Source: an uncultured Clostridia bacterium
Lineage (GTDB): Bacteria > Bacillota > Clostridia > Oscillospirales > CAG-382
DNA length: 64,000 nucleotides
Reading direction: 5' to 3'
NCBI GenBank assembly: GCA_947630765.1
Contig: CANRIX010000002.1
Span: 103,387-167,386, forward strand
In this document: positions 1,034 to 58,002 of the stretch, one piece after another
How positions within the stretch are numbered: the first letter of the stretch is position 1
Layout: each line of letters begins with the position of its first letter
The notes under the pieces: generated by a model
Databases searched by the model: none
What the model saw: the letters and a program-made list of their open reading frames with translations, nothing else
What the model was told of the DNA's origin: nothing
Program-made: the position numbers and the translations under genes

Positions 1034-1160
1034 GCGTAAACCGACCTCTTTCCGTCGTGGGACGTCCTTTTTTCACAGTATAACCGATTTGCGGGGAAAA
1101 TGCAAGCGTTATCGCACAGGAAAAACGCCTTCCGCCGAAAAAAACCAACGAAAATAAAAA

Positions 1161-1349
1161 TACAATAAAATTTGTTCCGGAGGCGGACATGTGCCGCCGG
1201 AGGAACTCCTTAAGAGAAAAACGGCGAAGGCGGCGTCAGAATTGGCGCAAGCCGAGCCATTTTTCGACGAAAGGGGAGTATTTGGGGGGAAAACGCAGAG
1301 CAAGGCGACGCATAGCGGCGACGCCGCGATTGCGTTTGCCCCCCGAAAG
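1161..1349. repeat. Structured intergenic repeat, copy 1 of 3 (co-oriented with copies at 28891-29092 and 55994-56193)
   Basis: Near-identical core CCTTAAGAGAAAAACGGCGAAGGCGGCGTCAGAATTGGCGCAAGCCGAGCCATTTTTCGACGAAAGG. Left hairpin 1175-1205 (TTCC GGA GGCGG ACATGTG CCGCC GGA GGAA). Right long hairpin 1284-1344 (GGGGGGAAAACGC...GCGTTTGCCCCCC). Ends 4 nt from the TAA stop of the HAD gene. Confidence 0.85.
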
Positions 1350-1353
1350 AAAG

Positions 1354-2007
1354 TTATAAAATCTCCCTGCAGAACGCATTCAGCGACGGGTAGACCGCGG
1401 CATAGGCGCGGATCTCGTCGGTCGGCGGGAACAGGTCGGGGATCATGACCACCCGCGTCCCCGCCCGACGGGCGGATTCCAACCCCGCATAGCTGTCCTC
1501 GACCGCGTAGGCGTCCGCAGGCGATACGTCCAGCAGGCGGCAGGCGGTCAGGTAGATCTCCGGGTCCGGCTTGCCGTGCAGGAACATATCCCCGGTCGTC
1601 AGGACGTTGAAGTAGGCGCGGATGTTCGCCTGTTCGAGGTTCGCGATCGCGCCCTCCCGCCGGGTCGAGGTCGCCAGGGCGATGCGGAAACCGTTTTCGT
1701 GCAGGGCGGAAAGCGTTTCGTGCAGTCCGGGCTTGAGCGGCAGACCGCGTTCGTCGATCAGGCGGCGGAAGCAGGCGGTCTTGCGGGGACCGAAATCCGC
1801 ATAGGCGACTTTTCCGCCGAACCACGCGTCGAAGATCTTTTCCGTGTCCGCTCCGTTATGACCGGCACAGCGGTCGCGAATCTCCCGAATGTCGATGCCC
1901 ATCTCCTCGCCGACGATGTCCCACGCCTCGTAGTAGACGCGTTCCGTGTCGAACAGCACGCCGTCCATGTCGAATACGACGGCTCTCGGCTTTCTTGCTC
2001 CGTTCAT
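1354..2007 (-). CDS. HAD-IA family hydrolase (beta-phosphoglucomutase-like phosphatase)
   Basis: Start trimmed to MNGARKPRAVVFDMDGVLFDT. HAD motifs present: DMDG, GKPDPEIY, EDSYAGLESARRAG. ATGA overlap with the scfB stop (2004-2007). Confidence 0.8.
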   Translation of the reverse strand: MNGARKPRAVVFDMDGVLFDTERVYYEAWDIVGEEMGIDIREIRDRCAGHNGADTEKIFDAWFGGKVAYADFGPRKTACFRRLIDERGLPLKPGLHETLSALHENGFRIALATSTRREGAIANLEQANIRAYFNVLTTGDMFLHGKPDPEIYLTACRLLDVSPADAYAVEDSYAGLESARRAGTRVVMIPDLFPPTDEIRAYAAVYPSLNAFCREIL

Positions 2008-28846: not shown

Positions 28847-28890
28847 GAACGGGCTCCTTTCGGGGAATATGACTTCACATAAAGATAAAA

Positions 28891-29092
28891 TACGATAAAA
28901 TATTGTTTCGGAGACGGACATGTGCCGGCTCCGAAACACCTTAAGAGAAAAATGGCGATGGCGGCGTCAGAAGTGGCGCAAGCCGAGCCATTTTTCGATG
29001 AAAAGGGGGGGCTTTGGGGGAAAAACGCAGAGCAAGACGGTGCGGCGACGAAGTCGCTGCCGGCACCGCGATTGCGTTTGTCCCCCAAAAAA
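28891..29092. repeat. Structured intergenic repeat, copy 2 of 3
   Basis: Same core as copy 1 with a few substitutions. Left hairpin 28906-28936 (TTTCGGAG A CGG ACATGTG CCG G CTCCGAAA). Right hairpin 29016-29086. Ends 2 nt from the TAA stop of the 71-aa gene. Confidence 0.85.
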
Positions 29093-29094
29093 CT

Positions 29095-29310
29095 TTACGT
29101 CTTCGGGTCTTGCTTTCTTGCCGGGAACAAGGTGCAGCCGTAGGACCGCCATTCCTCGATCTTCCCGCGCAGCAGCGCTTCCGACACGCCAAACCGCTTC
29201 GCGAGGCAGGGGACACACCGATACGCCGTCGACGCGCGGTTGATGAGCTTGCGGGTCGCGCCGATATCGTCCGGGGTCAGCGCCCGTCCGCAGTCAAGGC
29301 ATTCAGGCAT
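29095..29310 (-). CDS. Small CxxC...CxxC zinc-ribbon-like protein (71 aa)
   Basis: MPECLDCGRALTPDDIGATRKLINRASTAYRCVPCLAKRFGVSEALLRGKIEEWRSYGCTLF. 8-nt overlap with the GH27 gene end. Confidence 0.55.
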   Translation of the reverse strand: MPECLDCGRALTPDDIGATRKLINRASTAYRCVPCLAKRFGVSEALLRGKIEEWRSYGCTLFPARKQDPKT

Positions 29311-31163: not shown

Positions 31164-33194
31164 ATGCGTATGAAAAGAACCCTATGCCTCGTGCTGTTTG
31201 CGGTGCTGGCGGTCGCTTCGCTTTTGCAGGCGCTCCCGGCGCTTCCCGCTTCCGCAGAGGAGCCGCTTGTAAATATCGCGCGCGGCTGTTCCTACACGTC
31301 CTCCGATCCGTATATACTGGATTTGGACAAGAATCCCGGTACATACCGCGATAAGAAGTACAACGAACTGACCGACGGCGTCAAGGGGCATTCCCTTTAC
31401 GGGCCGGAATGGTATGCCTATAACGGTGCGAACGCCTACACGGTCACGATCGACCTCGGCTCGGTCCGCTCCGGCATCACCCGGCTTGCCGCCGAATTCT
31501 GCGACAACAACGGCGCCGCCGTTTATCTGCCCGTGAATCCGAAGTTTGCCGGGTCGACGGACGGCAAAACCTTCACGGACATCGGAAAACCGTGGGACGC
31601 GATGGCGGTGAAGGGTGCGGAAAAGACCGCGTACCATACCTATTATCTCGACCTCGACCAATCGGTTTCCTACCGCTATATCCGGCTGACCTTCGATAAG
31701 GGCGGGTTCTTCGTGTTCCTATCCGAAGTCGAGGTGTTCACCGGCTACGTTTCCGATTTGATCTTCCGTGAAGGCGACGCCTACCGTGACACGTCGGACA
31801 ATACGGTCTGCGGGCTGCGTGCCGGGACGACGGTCGGGGAGTTCCTTTCGCAGCTCAACACCCGTTCCGGCGTCACCTTGCTGGACGCGAAAGGAAACGC
31901 CAAGACGACCGGCCTTGTCGCGACCGGCGACGTGCTGGAAAAGAAGCAGGCGAGCGGAAGCGCGACGCGATTGCCCGTCGTCATTCTCGGCGACGTCAAC
32001 GGAGACGGGAAAGTGAATGCTACGGACTATATGCTGCTCAAGCGGCACGTCCTGCGGACATATTCGATCCCGGAAAAGAACCGCAAGGCGGCGAATATTT
32101 CCGCATCAGACGGAATCAACGCCACGGACTATATGCTGCTCAAGCGGCATGTGCTGGGCACATACAATATCTATGGCAATTCGCAGGGCGCAACGGATGA
32201 AGGCGGTCGCGGGGACGTGACGAGCGAATACCGCAATATGGATACGTCCGACAACATCGAAACCCTCACGAGCCATGCCATGACCTTCAGTCGCACGGCG
32301 GAAACCACCTACAGCGTGACCTGCCAGACCTACGGCGGGACGCTGCTGCTGACCTTCTACCGCACCGGCTGGGGCACCTATAACCTCGGCAAGTGGCAAT
32401 TGACCGACGGCGACGGTTCGCATACGTTCATCGCCGGGGCGACCGACTGGGAGTACGTTTACCGTGTCGCGCCGTCGGCGAGCGCCGGCTGGGTCTGGTC
32501 CGGCGGCAACCACGCCAACGAGAAACTGCGTTCCCTGCATTTCTATGACGGCAAGACGAACAAGGAACTTTCGCTCTCCGTCGGGCAGTCGGTTTCGGTA
32601 GACAACCTGAAGATCGTCGAGGAGACCACGCTGTATTGGGATCCGGCCGGTTCGGACGGGAAATACAATTACAGCGAGAGCAACCGCTACTGCGACGCGG
32701 TCCGCACCTATGCGATCGTCGGTCCGCAGATCCGTCTTGCCGTGGATTACGATTACTGCTACGGCAAGGACGCCTACTACGATACCTCCTATACCTGCAT
32801 GTTCCCGATCGAAAAGCTCTACGGCCTTTACTGCGCCTTCCTTGACGGCAAGGAGAACCTCCTTTCCGTCGTCGAAACGCTCAAGAAGGGCGACCCGACC
32901 TACAACGGGAAGCAGTATGACGGCAACGCGGCGGAACGCTGCGTCGTCTGGGGCTACGACGGACGGGAAAAGTACAAGTTCGACGTGCGCGTCCTGACGC
33001 CGGATACCAGCTGCAACAACTTCGACAACAAGATGAAGGTCTCCTTCTGGGACATGAATACGACGACCAATAAGATCTACTTCTCCAAGTTCCCGAAAGG
33101 AAACTACGCTGCCGGGAGCGCGGGAAGCGCGAAGCAAAAGATTTCCGCCGGAAGCCAGATCCACACGGAATGCCAGTGGACGTTCTACGAGTAA
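31164..33194 (+). CDS. Secreted multidomain protein: signal peptide, F5/8-type-C (CBM32-like) domain, internal type-I dockerin, about 330-aa C-terminal domain of unknown function
   Basis: Signal peptide ...LPALPASA. Discoidin-like region ending YRYIRLTF. Dockerin duplicated segments GDVNGDGKVNATDYMLLKRHVL and SDGINATDYMLLKRHVL. Confidence 0.75.
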   Translation: MRMKRTLCLVLFAVLAVASLLQALPALPASAEEPLVNIARGCSYTSSDPYILDLDKNPGTYRDKKYNELTDGVKGHSLYGPEWYAYNGANAYTVTIDLGSVRSGITRLAAEFCDNNGAAVYLPVNPKFAGSTDGKTFTDIGKPWDAMAVKGAEKTAYHTYYLDLDQSVSYRYIRLTFDKGGFFVFLSEVEVFTGYVSDLIFREGDAYRDTSDNTVCGLRAGTTVGEFLSQLNTRSGVTLLDAKGNAKTTGLVATGDVLEKKQASGSATRLPVVILGDVNGDGKVNATDYMLLKRHVLRTYSIPEKNRKAANISASDGINATDYMLLKRHVLGTYNIYGNSQGATDEGGRGDVTSEYRNMDTSDNIETLTSHAMTFSRTAETTYSVTCQTYGGTLLLTFYRTGWGTYNLGKWQLTDGDGSHTFIAGATDWEYVYRVAPSASAGWVWSGGNHANEKLRSLHFYDGKTNKELSLSVGQSVSVDNLKIVEETTLYWDPAGSDGKYNYSESNRYCDAVRTYAIVGPQIRLAVDYDYCYGKDAYYDTSYTCMFPIEKLYGLYCAFLDGKENLLSVVETLKKGDPTYNGKQYDGNAAERCVVWGYDGREKYKFDVRVLTPDTSCNNFDNKMKVSFWDMNTTTNKIYFSKFPKGNYAAGSAGSAKQKISAGSQIHTECQWTFYE

Positions 33195-33555: not shown

Positions 33556-34386
33556 ATGAAAAAGATTTTAACTGTCACCCTCGCGTTCGTGCTGGCGTTT
33601 TCGGCGTTCAGCCTGTTGGCCGTCTCTGCGGAGACGAGGGAACCGCTCTGCGTTTTCAACGTCAAGGGCGTCAACGGTATGATCGGCGGCGAGGACTGCG
33701 TGCTCTTTACGACGCAGGACGCTTACAACAGCGGCAACCCCAACTGGGCGATCACGATCCTGCTTGAGGTCAAGGACGACGGCACGCTGGTCGTCAAGGA
33801 GAAGGCGATCGCAGGGCAAGGTGCGGTCCCTGCCGGCGTGAAGGTCGGCGACGGCGTGGTCGCGCTGGTCGTGCATTCCGCCGCCTCCAAGGTGGAGGAT
33901 AAGGATACCTATCCCAACGTCGAAGCGAAGCTCGCCGCGCAGGAAGCGGACGTCGGCATGACCGTCGTGCTCGACGGCATCGACCTCGAAAACGCGTCCG
34001 GCGAAGGCACGGCGACGCTCTATCCGGCGGCGTCCGGCGGTACGGACGGCTCGTCCTCCGCCGCGTCGTCTGCGGCTTCGTCGGAAGCCTCGTCCGAAGC
34101 ATCGTCTGAAGCTTCGTCTGCCGCTTCCTCGGAGACCTCGTCTGCCGCGTCGTCTGAAACTTCTTCCGCGGCGTCCTCGGCGGTTTCGTCCGAAGCGTCG
34201 TCCGCCGCGTCGTCTGCGGCTTCCTCCGCGGTGACTTCCGCGCCGCAGTCGTCGAGTGCAGCGTCGTCGGAAACCTCCACGTCTGACGGCGGTCTTTCGG
34301 GCGGTGTGATCGCGGTCATCGTGATCGCGGCCGTGGTCATCGTCGCCGCAGTCATCGCGATCGTGGTCGTGAAGCGCAAGAAGTAA
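33556..34386 (+). CDS. Cell-surface protein: signal peptide, about 140-aa globular domain, Ser/Ala-rich repeat linker, C-terminal TM anchor + KRKK
   Basis: MKKILTVTLAFVLAFSAFSLLAVSA signal. SSAASS/SEASS repeats. C-terminal VIAVIVIAAVVIVAAVIAIVVVKRKK. Confidence 0.6.
   Translation: MKKILTVTLAFVLAFSAFSLLAVSAETREPLCVFNVKGVNGMIGGEDCVLFTTQDAYNSGNPNWAITILLEVKDDGTLVVKEKAIAGQGAVPAGVKVGDGVVALVVHSAASKVEDKDTYPNVEAKLAAQEADVGMTVVLDGIDLENASGEGTATLYPAASGGTDGSSSAASSAASSEASSEASSEASSAASSETSSAASSETSSAASSAVSSEASSAASSAASSAVTSAPQSSSAASSETSTSDGGLSGGVIAVIVIAAVVIVAAVIAIVVVKRKK
34050..34290 (+). repeat. Imperfect 15-nt tandem repeats encoding SS(A/E)(A/T)S units (inside the CDS)
   Basis: Reiterated tcgtc(c/t)gc(c/g)gc(g/t)/gaagc(c/t/a) units give the run SSAASSAASSEASSEASSEASSAASSETSSAASSETSSAASSAVSSEASSAASSAASS. 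Confidence 0.65.
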
Positions 34387-34393
34387 ATCGAAT

Positions 34394-34485
34394 ATACGCC
34401 GGGGAGCTTGCAGACAGGCTGAGAGGAAGGTGCGCCCTTCGACCCGTGACCTGATTTGGATAATGCCAACGTAGGGAACTTTCAG
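34394..34485 (+). promoter_or_regulatory. TPP (THI-box) riboswitch aptamer
   Basis: Conserved elements GGGGAGC...CTGAGA...ACCC...ACCTGATTTGGATAATGCCAACGTAGGGAA, directly upstream of thiS. Confidence 0.85.
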
Positions 34486-34499
34486 CGATTGCTTGCATC

Positions 34500-51293: not shown

Positions 51294-51370
51294 GGCGGAA
51301 TAGCTCAGTTGGCTAGAGCAATCGGTTCATACCCGGTCGGTCGTCGGTTCGAGTCCAACTTCCGCTACCA
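51294..51370 (+). tRNA. tRNA-Met (anticodon CAT), elongator type
   Basis: Hand-folded cloverleaf: acceptor GGCGGAA/TTCCGCT, D arm GCTC/GAGC, anticodon loop TTCATAC, T loop TTCGAGT, encoded CCA. Confidence 0.85.
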
Positions 51371-51372
51371 AA

Positions 51373-51447
51373 GGCCCGTTGGTCAAGGGGTTAAGACACC
51401 GCCCTTTCACGGCGGTAACAGCAGTTCAAATCTGCTACGGGTCACCA
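51373..51447 (+). tRNA. tRNA-Glu (anticodon TTC)
   Basis: Acceptor GGCCCGT/ACGGGTC, anticodon stem CCGCC/GGCGG with loop CTTTCAC, T loop TTCAAAT, encoded CCA. Confidence 0.9.
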
Positions 51448-53195: not shown

Positions 53196-53285
53196 GACGG
53201 TTTCCTTTCGGAAGCGGTTGATCAACGCTTTCACCCGTATAGTCCCGCGAAAGCGGGATGTGTTAGGCGAAAAAAAGAAAAAATT

Positions 53286-53341
53286 TGCAAAAACCGAGTA
53301 AACTGATAAAAAAAGGTGCAAAAACCGAGTAAACTGATAAA
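53286..53341. repeat. Two perfect 25-bp direct repeats (TGCAAAAACCGAGTAAACTGATAAA) with 31-bp periodicity
   Basis: Units at 53286-53310 and 53317-53341, in the divergent region between the sigma-fusion gene and the Rrf2 gene. Confidence 0.85.
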
Positions 53342-53357
53342 GTTTCGGAAAAATCCC

Positions 53358-53386
53358 TTGACAAAGCGGGAAAAAGCGAATAAAAT
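53358..53386 (+). promoter_or_regulatory. Rrf2 gene promoter (TTGACA-17-TAAAAT)
   Basis: TTGACAaagcgggaaaaagcgaaTAAAAT. Confidence 0.5.
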
Positions 53387-53421
53387 GGAGGAAAGAACAC
53401 AGGGGAAAGGGGCGAAGCATC

Positions 53422-55936: not shown

Positions 55937-55993
55937 CGAAAGGCAGAAGAAGCCGTTTGGCGGGCTTCAAAATTTTGAAAAAATATTTAGAAA

Positions 55994-56193
55994 TATAATC
56001 AAAATGTCGTCCCGTAGGCGGACATGTGCCGCCGGAGGGACTCCTTAAGAGAAAACGGCGAAGGCGGCGTCAGAAGTGGCGCAAGCCGAGCCGTTTTTCG
56101 ATGAAAAGGGGGAATGTTCGGGGGGAAAACACAGAGCAAGGCGGAGCGCACGAAGTGCGCGAAGTCGCCGCGATTGCGTTTGCCCCCCGAAAG
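55994..56193. repeat. Structured intergenic repeat, copy 3 of 3
   Basis: Same core. Left hairpin 56009-56041 (GTCCC GTA GGCGG ACATGTG CCGCC GGA GGGAC). Right hairpin 56120-56188. Ends 3 nt from the TAA stop of pepF. Confidence 0.85.
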
Positions 56194-56196
56194 TTC

Positions 56197-58002
56197 TTAC
56201 GGGTGCAGTTTTTCGTAAAGTGCACGGAACTGCTCGACGGTCGCCGCAAAATCAGCGATGGCGTCCTCGATGACTTCGGGCTTGGTCAGGTCGATGTCGG
56301 CGACGAGCAGGCTGTCGAGCGGACTGCGGGAACCGCCGCACTTGAGGAAGTCGAGGTACTTCTGCACATACGCGTCCCCTTGCGTTTCAATCTTCTTGAC
56401 GATGCTCGACGCGGCGGAGATGCAGGTCGCGTACTTGTACACATAGAAATTATAGTAGAAATGCGGGATCCGCATCCATTCGTAGGCGATCTGCTTGTCG
56501 CAGACGACGTCCTTGCCGAAGTAACGCTTGACGAGTTCGTAGTACCGTTTACTTAACAGGTCCTTCGTGAGCGTCTCACCGGCTTCGCACAGGGCGTGCA
56601 TTTCCTTCTCGAAGGAAGCGAACATGGTCTGCCGGTAGAGCGTTCCCTTGTAGGTCTCCATAAGCTGGTTGAGGATATACAGCTTTTCCTCGTCGCTGTC
56701 CGATTCGCGCAGCAGCTTGTGGAACAGGATCAGCTCGTTGACGGTCGAAGCGACCTCGGCGACGAAGATCGTGTACCGGGATTCCTGCGGCGTGTTCGCC
56801 TTGGCGGAATACCAGCTGTGCATCGAATGTCCCGCCTCGTGCGCGAGGGTGGAAACGTCGTCGAGCGTGTTGGTGTAGTTGAGCAGGATATACGGCTGCG
56901 TGTCGTAGGAGCCGGCGCTGTAGGCACCGCCGCGTTTGCCCTTGTTCGGGTAGACGTCCGCCCAGCCCTTGCTCTTCAGTCCGTCCGCGAGCGTGTCGCG
57001 GTACTCGCTTCCGTAGACCTTGACGGCGTCGAGCACGATCTCCACGGCTTCCTCATAACCGTATTTGCGGTCGCAGGAGGTGATCAGCGGGGTGTAGATG
57101 TCGTACAGGTGCAGGGCGGGCAGTCCGAGCGCACGCTTCTTGAGCGCGTAGTAGTCGAACAGCGGACGGAGGTTGCGCTCGACCGTGTCGATCAGGTTGT
57201 TGTAGATGACCGGCGTAACCTCGTCGTGGAAAACGGACGCTTCGAGGCTGTTGGAGAATTTGCGCACGCGGGCGACCGTCACGCGCTCCTTGACGAACCC
57301 GTTGAGCAGGGCGGCGAACGTGTTGCCGTAGCGATCGTACGTTTCGTAGAGCTTGGTGAACGCCGCACGGCGGACCCGGCGGTCGGTGCTCATCAGCAGC
57401 GGGACGTAGGTCGTGTCCGTCAGGCGAAGCTCCTTGCCGTCCTCGCCCTTGATCTTGCCGAACAGCAGGTCCGCGTTCGCAAAGACGCTGCGGATGTCGT
57501 CGTGCGAATTGAGCGCCCCCTGCAGGTTCGCCAGCAGCTTCTCGCATTCGTCGGAAAGCGTATGCGGGCGGTACCGGCGGGCGAGCGTGATGGCACGGCG
57601 GAATTCCTTGAGCTTCGGGTAGGATTCGTACCATTCGGTCAGCGTTTTCTCCTTCAGCTTCATCAGGCAGGGGTCGACGAAGAAGGCGGCGGCCGCGAGG
57701 TCCTCGTCCAGCCGCAGCACCTTTCCGCGCAGGGCGAGATAGGTATTATCCGACGTGTCCACGTCGGAATGCAGGCTCGCGTACTCGTACAGCTTGGAGA
57801 TCAGACGGCTGAGCCGCTCGGAATCGCAGAACATGTCGTACAGTCCCTCCGGGCTTTGGCACATGGTCTTTTGGTGCTTGGGGAAATCGGCAATCAGCTC
57901 CTTGGTACGGGCGAAGTCGGCGTCGAACGCCGCCATGTCCGCGTAGATCGCGGAAAGGTCCCATTTGTATTTTGCGGGAATATCCGCACGGTTATCGGTC
58001 AT
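56197..58002 (-). CDS. pepF: Oligoendopeptidase F (M3B family)
   Basis: 601 aa with the zinc motif HEAGHSMH. Confidence 0.9.
   Translation of the reverse strand: MTDNRADIPAKYKWDLSAIYADMAAFDADFARTKELIADFPKHQKTMCQSPEGLYDMFCDSERLSRLISKLYEYASLHSDVDTSDNTYLALRGKVLRLDEDLAAAAFFVDPCLMKLKEKTLTEWYESYPKLKEFRRAITLARRYRPHTLSDECEKLLANLQGALNSHDDIRSVFANADLLFGKIKGEDGKELRLTDTTYVPLLMSTDRRVRRAAFTKLYETYDRYGNTFAALLNGFVKERVTVARVRKFSNSLEASVFHDEVTPVIYNNLIDTVERNLRPLFDYYALKKRALGLPALHLYDIYTPLITSCDRKYGYEEAVEIVLDAVKVYGSEYRDTLADGLKSKGWADVYPNKGKRGGAYSAGSYDTQPYILLNYTNTLDDVSTLAHEAGHSMHSWYSAKANTPQESRYTIFVAEVASTVNELILFHKLLRESDSDEEKLYILNQLMETYKGTLYRQTMFASFEKEMHALCEAGETLTKDLLSKRYYELVKRYFGKDVVCDKQIAYEWMRIPHFYYNFYVYKYATCISAASSIVKKIETQGDAYVQKYLDFLKCGGSRSPLDSLLVADIDLTKPEVIEDAIADFAATVEQFRALYEKLHP

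Follow-up and report, generated by a model that had tools for sequence, protein, structure and literature searches.

A dispersed family of structured, non-coding repeats at gene ends in uncultured rabbit-gut Clostridia

Copies in the window and other features

The window, by which we mean the whole stretch of 64,000 nt analyzed here, harbors three copies of one element, which represents its sole long dispersed repeat family. Each copy adjoins the 3' end of a gene on the opposite strand: a HAD-family phosphatase gene, a small ORF of 71 aa without family match and the oligoendopeptidase F gene pepF (Table 1). A preliminary description had proposed three co-oriented copies, and this was borne out at 1161-1349, 28891-29091 and 55994-56193, all on the plus strand; nhmmer revealed no further copy in the window. 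The region proposed for the unit stands as well, but its 5' boundary does not, since an A-rich extension adds ~25-30 nt. The P1 hairpin of copy 2 is the fully Watson-Crick variant UUCGGAG/CUCCGAA, and its site is also occupied in Logan contig L046 (from a 97% relative), which breaks inside P1. On the minus strand all three copies carry a terminator-like end. That of copy 1 would stop the transcript of the gene ending at 1354; that of copy 3 is weaker than in most copies, and the scan flags an inner stem with the tail ACATTTTGAT there.

Table 1. Coordinates of the three copies, their parts and the adjoining features in the window
Feature	Position	Strand	Basis or remark
Copy 1, whole element	1138..1349	+	sequence alignment, consensus fold, nhmmer
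Copy 1, A-rich 5' extension	1138-1160		
Copy 1, -10-like TACAAT	1161-1166		
Copy 1, P1	1174-1206		
Copy 1, P2 (invariant core)	1216-1265		
Copy 1, G-run linker	1266-1280		
Copy 1, P3	1281-1347		
Copy 1, terminator-like end	1150..1206	-	P1 reverse complement and U-rich tail AAAUUUUAUUGUAUUUUUAUUUU; 6 U in best 8-nt window
HAD-family phosphatase gene	1354..1992	-	TAA stop 4 nt from copy 1 end
Copy 2, whole element	28866..29091	+	alignment, consensus fold, nhmmer
Copy 2, 5' extension	28866-28890		
Copy 2, TACGAT	28891-28896		
Copy 2, P1	28905-28937		
Copy 2, P2	28947-28996		
Copy 2, P3	29013-29089		
Copy 2, terminator-like end	28880..28937	-	P1 reverse complement and U-rich tail; 6 U of 8
Small 71-aa ORF	29095..29310	-	gene-like GC3 of 0.82; TAA stop 3 nt from copy 2 end
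Copy 3, whole element	55969..56193	+	alignment, consensus fold, nhmmer
Copy 3, 5' extension	55969-55993		
Copy 3, TATAAT	55994-55999		
Copy 3, P1	56009-56041		
Copy 3, P2	56051-56099		
Copy 3, G-run linker	56100-56116		
Copy 3, P3	56117-56191		
Copy 3, terminator-like end	55985..56041	-	P1 reverse complement and tail GACAUUUUGAUUAUAUUU; 4 U of 8
Oligoendopeptidase F gene (pepF)	56197..58002	-	native TAA stop 3 nt from copy 3 end
Remnant of original bidirectional intergenic terminator	55949..55968	.	filled versus empty site alignment

When the whole window was compared to Rfam 15 at the gathering threshold, only a TPP riboswitch (34390-34494, plus strand; RF00059, 64.2 bits with the gathering cutoff at 54.3) and two adjacent tRNA genes, tRNA-Met (CAT) and tRNA-Glu (TTC), at 51294-51447 (plus strand) were found. 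Just upstream of the riboswitch lies a 12-nt periodic direct repeat (34030-34245) of ~18 GCxTCGTCxGAA-like units, one strand of which probably encodes a low-complexity repeat that is acidic or rich in Ser/Ala. A 47-nt direct repeat with 87% identity and a spacing of 102 nt (32016-32062 and 32118-32164) is located inside a 676-aa ORF (31164-33194) and is probably an internal protein repeat. At 53278-53390, two tandem 31-bp repeats (AAAAAAnnTGCAAAAACCGAGTAAACTGATA) are accompanied by a third, degenerate copy that overlaps a promoter-like TTGACA-N17-TAAAAT upstream of an ORF with the N-terminus ISTKGRYALRMLADLAE. We take this ORF, by eye, to resemble Rrf2, and the repeats are candidate operator or UP repeats.

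Occurrence and consensus fold

A 25-nt pattern derived from the core matched 34 times in 33 contigs, in both orientations, within CANQTR01 and CANQVQ01, two related rabbit-gut 'uncultured Clostridia' MAGs. An nhmmer profile search added two complete copies whose cores have diverged, as well as a core-like fragment, bringing the family to at least 39 copies in ~300 kb of sequence from the window and both MAGs. Restriction of the similarity to the three loci, named initially as a finding that would speak against the family, is thereby dismissed, and the core recurs far beyond chance. Among JGI metagenomes a shorter 20-nt core pattern gave five matches only, all of them chance matches inside coding sequence; the core pattern had no match in viral contigs, nor did BLASTN in distant mode yield one in plasmid and phage collections. 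An exact look-up of the window's PepF gave no record. The source names of PepF homologs include Oscillospiraceae and Clostridia bacterium, and contigs L007 and L016 align to the window with 92-93% identity. The family is restricted to a few uncultured, Oscillospiraceae-like Clostridia from the rabbit gut, where it comprises dozens of copies. Several copies are found at contig ends (position 1 of L002, L027, L030 and L046; the end of L012). A practical effect of the element is that it breaks short-read assemblies of these genomes, and copy numbers per genome are consequently underestimates.

The element had been introduced as an unassigned structured repeat that corresponds to no known riboswitch, sRNA, REP, BOX, ERIC or IS end. 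Our searches support this view: for copy 1, Rfam 15 delivered only noise of 11-14 bits even at E<=10, nothing was found at E<=1 for the long variants in L019 and L022, and literature word searches did not find the element's description. Six-frame translation, used as protein query against 5.8 billion proteins, returned one spurious ORF cluster. It traces to three short ENA contigs (L039, L040 and L041) with a head-to-tail dimer, in which two element units stand 15 nt apart (L039 296-710; also in L040 and L041), joined by GGCGAAGCGTT. The GCGAAGCG(T) motif of this junction corresponds to a GCGAAGC mini-hairpin, which also follows the 3' end of the copies in L018 and L033 and precedes the TACAAT box in L011 and L022. 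Since it recurs at element ends, it may represent an extra 3' tail in one subfamily.

Full copies (n = 34) measure 190-255 nt, or ~215-280 bp if the A-rich 5' extension is included. According to the RNAalifold consensus they form three main hairpins, namely P1, P2 with the invariant core and a long P3, which can be complemented by up to three optional modules. Much of the anatomy first proposed for the window was recovered: the AT-rich lead (TACAAT, TACGAT or TATAAT plus AAAAT), the first hairpin and the near-invariant core of ~75 nt, both visible in the alignment of the three copies, and the terminal hairpin closed by GGGGGGAAAACGC/GCGTTTGCCCCCC. Other details had to be revised. The ACATGTG loop of the first hairpin is invariant within the window as proposed, but varies family-wide (GCGTGTA, ACATGAG and others), with its first and last bases swapping between A..G and G..A. 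GGC-GCAA-GCC and TTTTCGATGAAAA, interpreted as separate small hairpins, are both part of one long P2 in the consensus fold, and CUCCUUAAG, described as SD-like or anti-SD-like depending on orientation, sits in a variable linker (ACACCTT, ACACATC, CACAAT and others) and is no conserved SD or anti-SD.

P2 is composed of the helices GAAAAnCGGC/GCCGnUUUUC, GGC/GCC and GCGUCA/UGGCGC (GCGUCA-GAAK-UGGCGC). A purine-rich linker with a G-run lies between P2 and P3, and P3 is closed by UUYGGGGGG/CCCCCCRAA. The insertion points of the optional hairpins are fixed, and the apex of P3 can be exchanged; compensated variants exist for all of these. Covariation was assessed in the 34-sequence alignment by counting pairs that changed on both sides, with shuffles and slid partners as controls. 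The 54-pair structure of the plus strand, of which 94.3% of cells pair, contains 23 such pairs compared to 10.4±1.6 in shuffles (0 of 500 reach 23) and 4-9 in slid-partner controls, so the covariation signal is clear. Pairing of the linker CUCCUU with G-run 1, and competition of G-run 1 for the C-run, were rejected, as covariation is not consistent across copies and only L013 and, in part, L027 fit. In L022 (598-651, plus strand) an isolated, diverged P2 core (GGGAAAAACGGCGTAGGCGGCGTCGGAAGGGGTGCAAACCGTACCGTATTTCGCC) was detected alone with other hairpins around it; it represents a copy in decay or else an element related to the family. The earlier observation that 1-nt indels scramble the reading frames was confirmed, and the frames differ between copies. 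Module insertions of 20-40 nt shift them further, and no reading frame is conserved across copies. Consequently, as small indels and larger insertions shift every frame, the element is non-coding.

Insertion, gene ends and strand

The pepF site is both filled and empty among relatives. Orthologs with an empty site and the same neighbours encode PepF of 92% (L042/L043), 87% (L044) and 85% (L047) identity, and their 57-71 nt spacer contains only a bidirectional terminator. In the window and in L007 (97%) the element directly follows the same native TAA of pepF, and the C-terminus (LHP*) is the same in relatives with the empty site. From the alignment of filled (window, L007) and empty (L042, L043, L044) sites, copy 3 replaces ~24 nt, including the pepF-proximal arm and the T-tract of the old terminator. 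These sequence comparisons show that the element is an insertion at the pepF site, and presence or absence at an orthologous site together with multiple dispersed copies is what a mobile repeat in general would display. In ~75 kb of sequence from empty-site relatives no copy was found. The change at pepF is a replacement, not a duplication; target-site duplications were not detected across copies either, as the longest word shared by the 5' and 3' flanks averages 5.7 nt versus 5.8 nt in mismatched-copy controls. Copies 1 and 3, analyzed with their flanks, contain internal hairpins only and their termini are unpaired. With neither terminal inverted repeats nor target-site duplications, a MITE was rejected.

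Several copies are associated with changes in their surroundings. Copy 1 and its ortholog in L016 are identical in the flanks and the 5' half; in the 3' half, identity falls to ~70% (estimated from the alignment). L011 and L022 have the 5' flank and 5' half in common and differ in the 3' flank, which constitutes a synteny break. In L028 (2932-5361) two direct copies bracket exactly one gene, encoding a ribosomal-protection-like ABC-F ATPase (NF000355, 436 bits), whereas the sister MAG has a single copy without this gene (L001 4749-5003). This difference reflects either a cassette-like gain or a deletion by recombination between the copies. In L032 (4330-4620) the 3' end of the adjoining gene is present a second time, as a 41-nt pseudo-copy beyond the element. 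Its codons differ synonymously, yet the encoded ...GIIDKVLDE* is retained. The functional gene end of L032 shows four synonymous differences from that of L013 (5984-6309), and we presume from the C-terminus, compared by eye, that this orthologous gene encodes a ClpP-like protein. The pseudo-copy could result from co-transfer of the 3' flank or from imprecise insertion. Taken together, the mosaics, the synteny break, the bracketed ABC-F gene, the tandem dimer and the L032 pseudo-copy argue that copies recombine and mark rearrangements.

The element is placed downstream of genes, as REP/SPRITE-like 3' repeats are. Its 3' end and the stop codon of an opposite-strand gene are -11 to +12 nt apart in ~23 of 37 copies, counting genes with genuine codon bias and including L019. 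With the element in plus orientation, 27 of 34 copies have a convergent neighbour on the 3' side; roughly one copy in three has no adjoining convergent stop codon. The flanking stop is TAA at 13 of 18 unique loci. In the same sequences TAA ends 38 of 106 confident ORFs, a set that contains the genes next to the element, and without these genes its share is roughly a quarter by our estimate. No neighbouring protein family such as a transposase, nuclease or RT recurs; the clusters obtained were ORFs through the element or orthologous flanks. The orientation of the copies relative to the global gene strand is only weakly biased (64 kb on the same and 81 kb on the opposite strand). Thus the placement bias is local to the adjacent gene, and replication or the global gene strand was discarded as the cause of orientation.

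As the element starts 2-12 nt past the stop codon, transcripts of the host gene must enter it. On this gene-sense (minus) strand, the reverse complement of P1 is followed by a U-tract in 29 of 34 copies, if at least 5 U are required in an 8-nt window starting 0-2 nt after it. The gene-sense strand thus has the architecture of an intrinsic terminator, a GC hairpin with a U-tract; termination itself is predicted. The plus-strand tail after P3 is comparably U-rich in 8 of 34 copies. Nevertheless, the strand evidence for the element's RNA is split, because the better fold is found on the plus strand, as detailed below.

We tentatively favor, with a probability of roughly 0.45, a mobile structured 3'-UTR/terminator cassette of REP/SPRITE/BOX-like character, from which an antisense plus-strand RNA might possibly arise as well. 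The copies would be non-coding, non-autonomous repeats that landed between a gene's stop codon and its intergenic terminator. The transcript of the gene would traverse P3, a C-rich linker and P2 in turn, both hairpins as their reverse complements, and would then stop at the element's own GC hairpin, the reverse complement of P1, and its U-tract. Such a cassette may terminate and/or stabilise the host mRNA, and since a very stable hairpin is located 2-12 nt past the stop, it may also slow the terminating ribosome. Spread would take place at the DNA level, and recombination between copies would homogenise them. An antisense small RNA is conceivable, because the plus strand folds better and bears a conserved -10-like box. 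However, several observations stand against the cassette: the better fold is on the plus instead of the gene-sense strand; the TACAAT box is spaced from P1 like a -10 element; a plain terminator needs no near-invariant core of 75 nt; about a third of the copies are away from a convergent stop; and no mobilising enzyme was found in the sequence searched.

A second scenario, possible but in our view rather unlikely, is a multicopy small RNA gene that is independently transcribed from the plus strand, with TACAAT as a -35-less promoter behind an A-rich upstream region. Transcription would start 2-3 nt before P1 and the RNA would comprise P1, P2, a single-stranded SD-like G-run (AAAGGGGG or GGAG variants) and P3. 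As the element faces the end of the neighbouring gene, this RNA would run antisense to the 3' end or the 3'UTR of the latter, and action in trans on other copies would be possible. The plus strand indeed folds better: 94.3% of cells are canonical compared to 89.6% on the minus strand, G·U far exceeds A·C among the variable pairs (83 versus 31), two G·U pairs are conserved and the minimum free energy is ~15 kcal/mol lower in 35 of 35 copies, although the z-scores are similar (-6.1 for plus and -5.6 for minus). Its unpaired regions, loops included, are purine-rich, and the inserted hairpins display CUUG or CUCG tetraloops. The -10-like TACAAT is found at a fixed 9-10 nt before P1, exact in ~26 of 37 copies, and the scan detected a promoter-like TTCACA-16-TAAAAT at copy 2. 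However, no -35 is conserved on the plus strand, the promoter scan was empty at copies 1 and 3, and four copies without the box keep the fold. With a U-rich tail after P3 in so few copies, most of these RNAs would have no terminator and would continue into the convergent gene. Furthermore, neither the 3' end at 2-12 nt from a stop codon nor the terminator of opposite direction at the far end would be explained by such a gene.

Purely selfish DNA appears improbable. Here, the fold of plus-strand ssDNA would be recognised by an HUH/Y1 transposase or a tyrosine recombinase, following the models of REP/RAYT, IS200/IS605 miniature derivatives or integron attC; RNA effects would be by-products and the bias toward gene ends a target preference for TAA plus A/T-rich sequence. 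The lack of terminal inverted repeats and target-site duplications fits this idea, as do strand-specific folding that tolerates G·T, the GTAG or GNAG tag before the inner P1 palindrome, stable apical loops of the C-GNA-G type, the enrichment of TAA as flanking stop, the cassette-like bracketing of the ABC-F gene plus element by two direct copies and mosaics that switch just past the core. Yet neither end abuts a fixed tetra- or pentanucleotide and the spacer to the stop codon is variable. The ~24-nt deletion at pepF and the 41-nt duplication at clpP suggest imprecise events rather than clean transposition. In addition, the element consists of three independent hairpins and not of one attC-like bulged hairpin, its copies are dispersed among housekeeping genes instead of being arrayed, and old orthologous copies keep the fold. 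A Y1/RAYT search by tblastn in 414 kb, a weak check with approximate IS200 TnpA and YafM queries, gave only chance matches (E>=0.07) and no Y1 transposase; one such match near the copy of L019 lies inside an HTH membrane-protein gene.

One might go further and speculate, though we consider this very doubtful, that a mobile cassette of a new type homes to the first few nucleotides after a TAA in one orientation and equips many unrelated genes with two features at once. On the gene strand it would supply a structured 3'UTR that includes a terminator. On the other, better-folding strand it would supply an antisense RNA with a promoter, whose invariant core would bind a protein or the ribosome and whose SD-like G-run would be exposed. 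This would amount to a transposable post-transcriptional regulon, whose copies would also be recombination sites for gain and loss of gene-plus-element units such as the ABC-F ribosomal-protection gene. Finally, a cis-regulatory leader (riboswitch or attenuator) of the downstream gene or a small protein-coding gene, for which the conserved fold, two G-runs competing for one C-run and ORFs open through some copies could be quoted, is effectively refuted by the convergent downstream genes, by unrelated neighbours (HAD phosphatase, PepF, ClpP-like, ABC-F and an alpha-galactosidase region) and by the frame shifts, with just a spurious cluster from the six-frame query.

If the reading as a mobile 3'-UTR/terminator cassette is right, one cassette that replaces native terminators would have rewired dozens of genes, housekeeping and accessory, at their 3' ends in a small clade of gut Oscillospiraceae-like Clostridia. 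The family offers a natural experiment on 3'-UTR structure and terminator evolution, and with its invariant 75-nt core and good covariation it is a candidate new structured RNA. Its copies also provide a set of recombination hot spots, already apparent at synteny breaks and where the ABC-F gene was gained or lost.

Relation to known repeat systems

Among known repeats, REPs occur for the most part 3' of coding sequence, and a role as RNA has been proposed for them (PMC3733652). The element resembles REP, BIME and REPIN sequences in that both are extragenic, GC-rich and palindromic, tend to follow coding regions where the flanking genes are unidirectional or convergent, and are probably transcribed (PMC3733652). 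In 15 of 34 aligned copies the inner P1 hairpin is, by eye, preceded by GTAG. However, a REP is a single palindrome of 20-40 nt that occurs hundreds of times; its GTAG or CGTC tag is strict, and a RAYT gene often accompanies it. The element, in contrast, is ~200 nt long with three to six hairpins, its tag varies between GTAG, GGAG and GCAG, and no RAYT was seen in the 414 kb searched. A length of 190-255 nt, several hairpins and the tag that is not fixed led us to reject a REP/REPIN unit. The pneumococcal SPRITE, compared by description only, measures ~105 nt against 190-255 nt here; the element has optional modules, two further conserved hairpins and the near-invariant 75-nt core, and it is the opposite strand that folds better.

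BOX elements of pneumococcus are likewise modular with variable internal modules and a predicted stable RNA structure, intergenic and without their own transposase (PMC3184786). Their modules (boxA/B/C) are unrelated to those described here, though, and adjacency to stop codons is not reported for BOX. The bcr1 repeats of the Bacillus cereus group are similar in being lineage-specific, ~150 bp or more in size and non-conserved in genomic distribution, with compensatory base changes that maintain the RNA fold; bcr1 is transcribed (PMC3184786). In contrast to the element, which lacks target-site duplications, bcr1 has flanking 5-bp direct repeats, and the architectures differ.

With integron attC sites the element shares its start a few nt from a stop codon and strand-specific folding, and the gene-plus-element unit present or absent between two direct copies recalls a gene cassette. 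Yet an attC is a single bulged hairpin of 57-141 nt with R''/R' boxes, arrayed next to intI, whereas the element forms three independent hairpins, its window copies are ~27 kb apart among housekeeping genes and an integrase was not seen; with no recurrent neighbour family either, attC was rejected. IS200/IS605 miniatures (PATEs) and TnpB omega-RNA scaffolds are comparable in lacking terminal inverted repeats and target-site duplications, in their subterminal hairpins and in strand specificity. Unlike such miniatures, the element has no conserved target tetra- or pentanucleotide at its end, and Rfam IS605-orfB and HEARO gave no match for it. Upstream of the A-rich 5' end the copies show no sequence relation to one another, and the stop-codon spacer is variable, so an IS200/IS605 miniature was rejected too. 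Since the resemblance to MITEs, REPs, attC sites and IS200/IS605 miniatures is general and extends to none of their defining features, the element is an undescribed family of a known general kind, that of the REP/BOX/SPRITE-like repeats.
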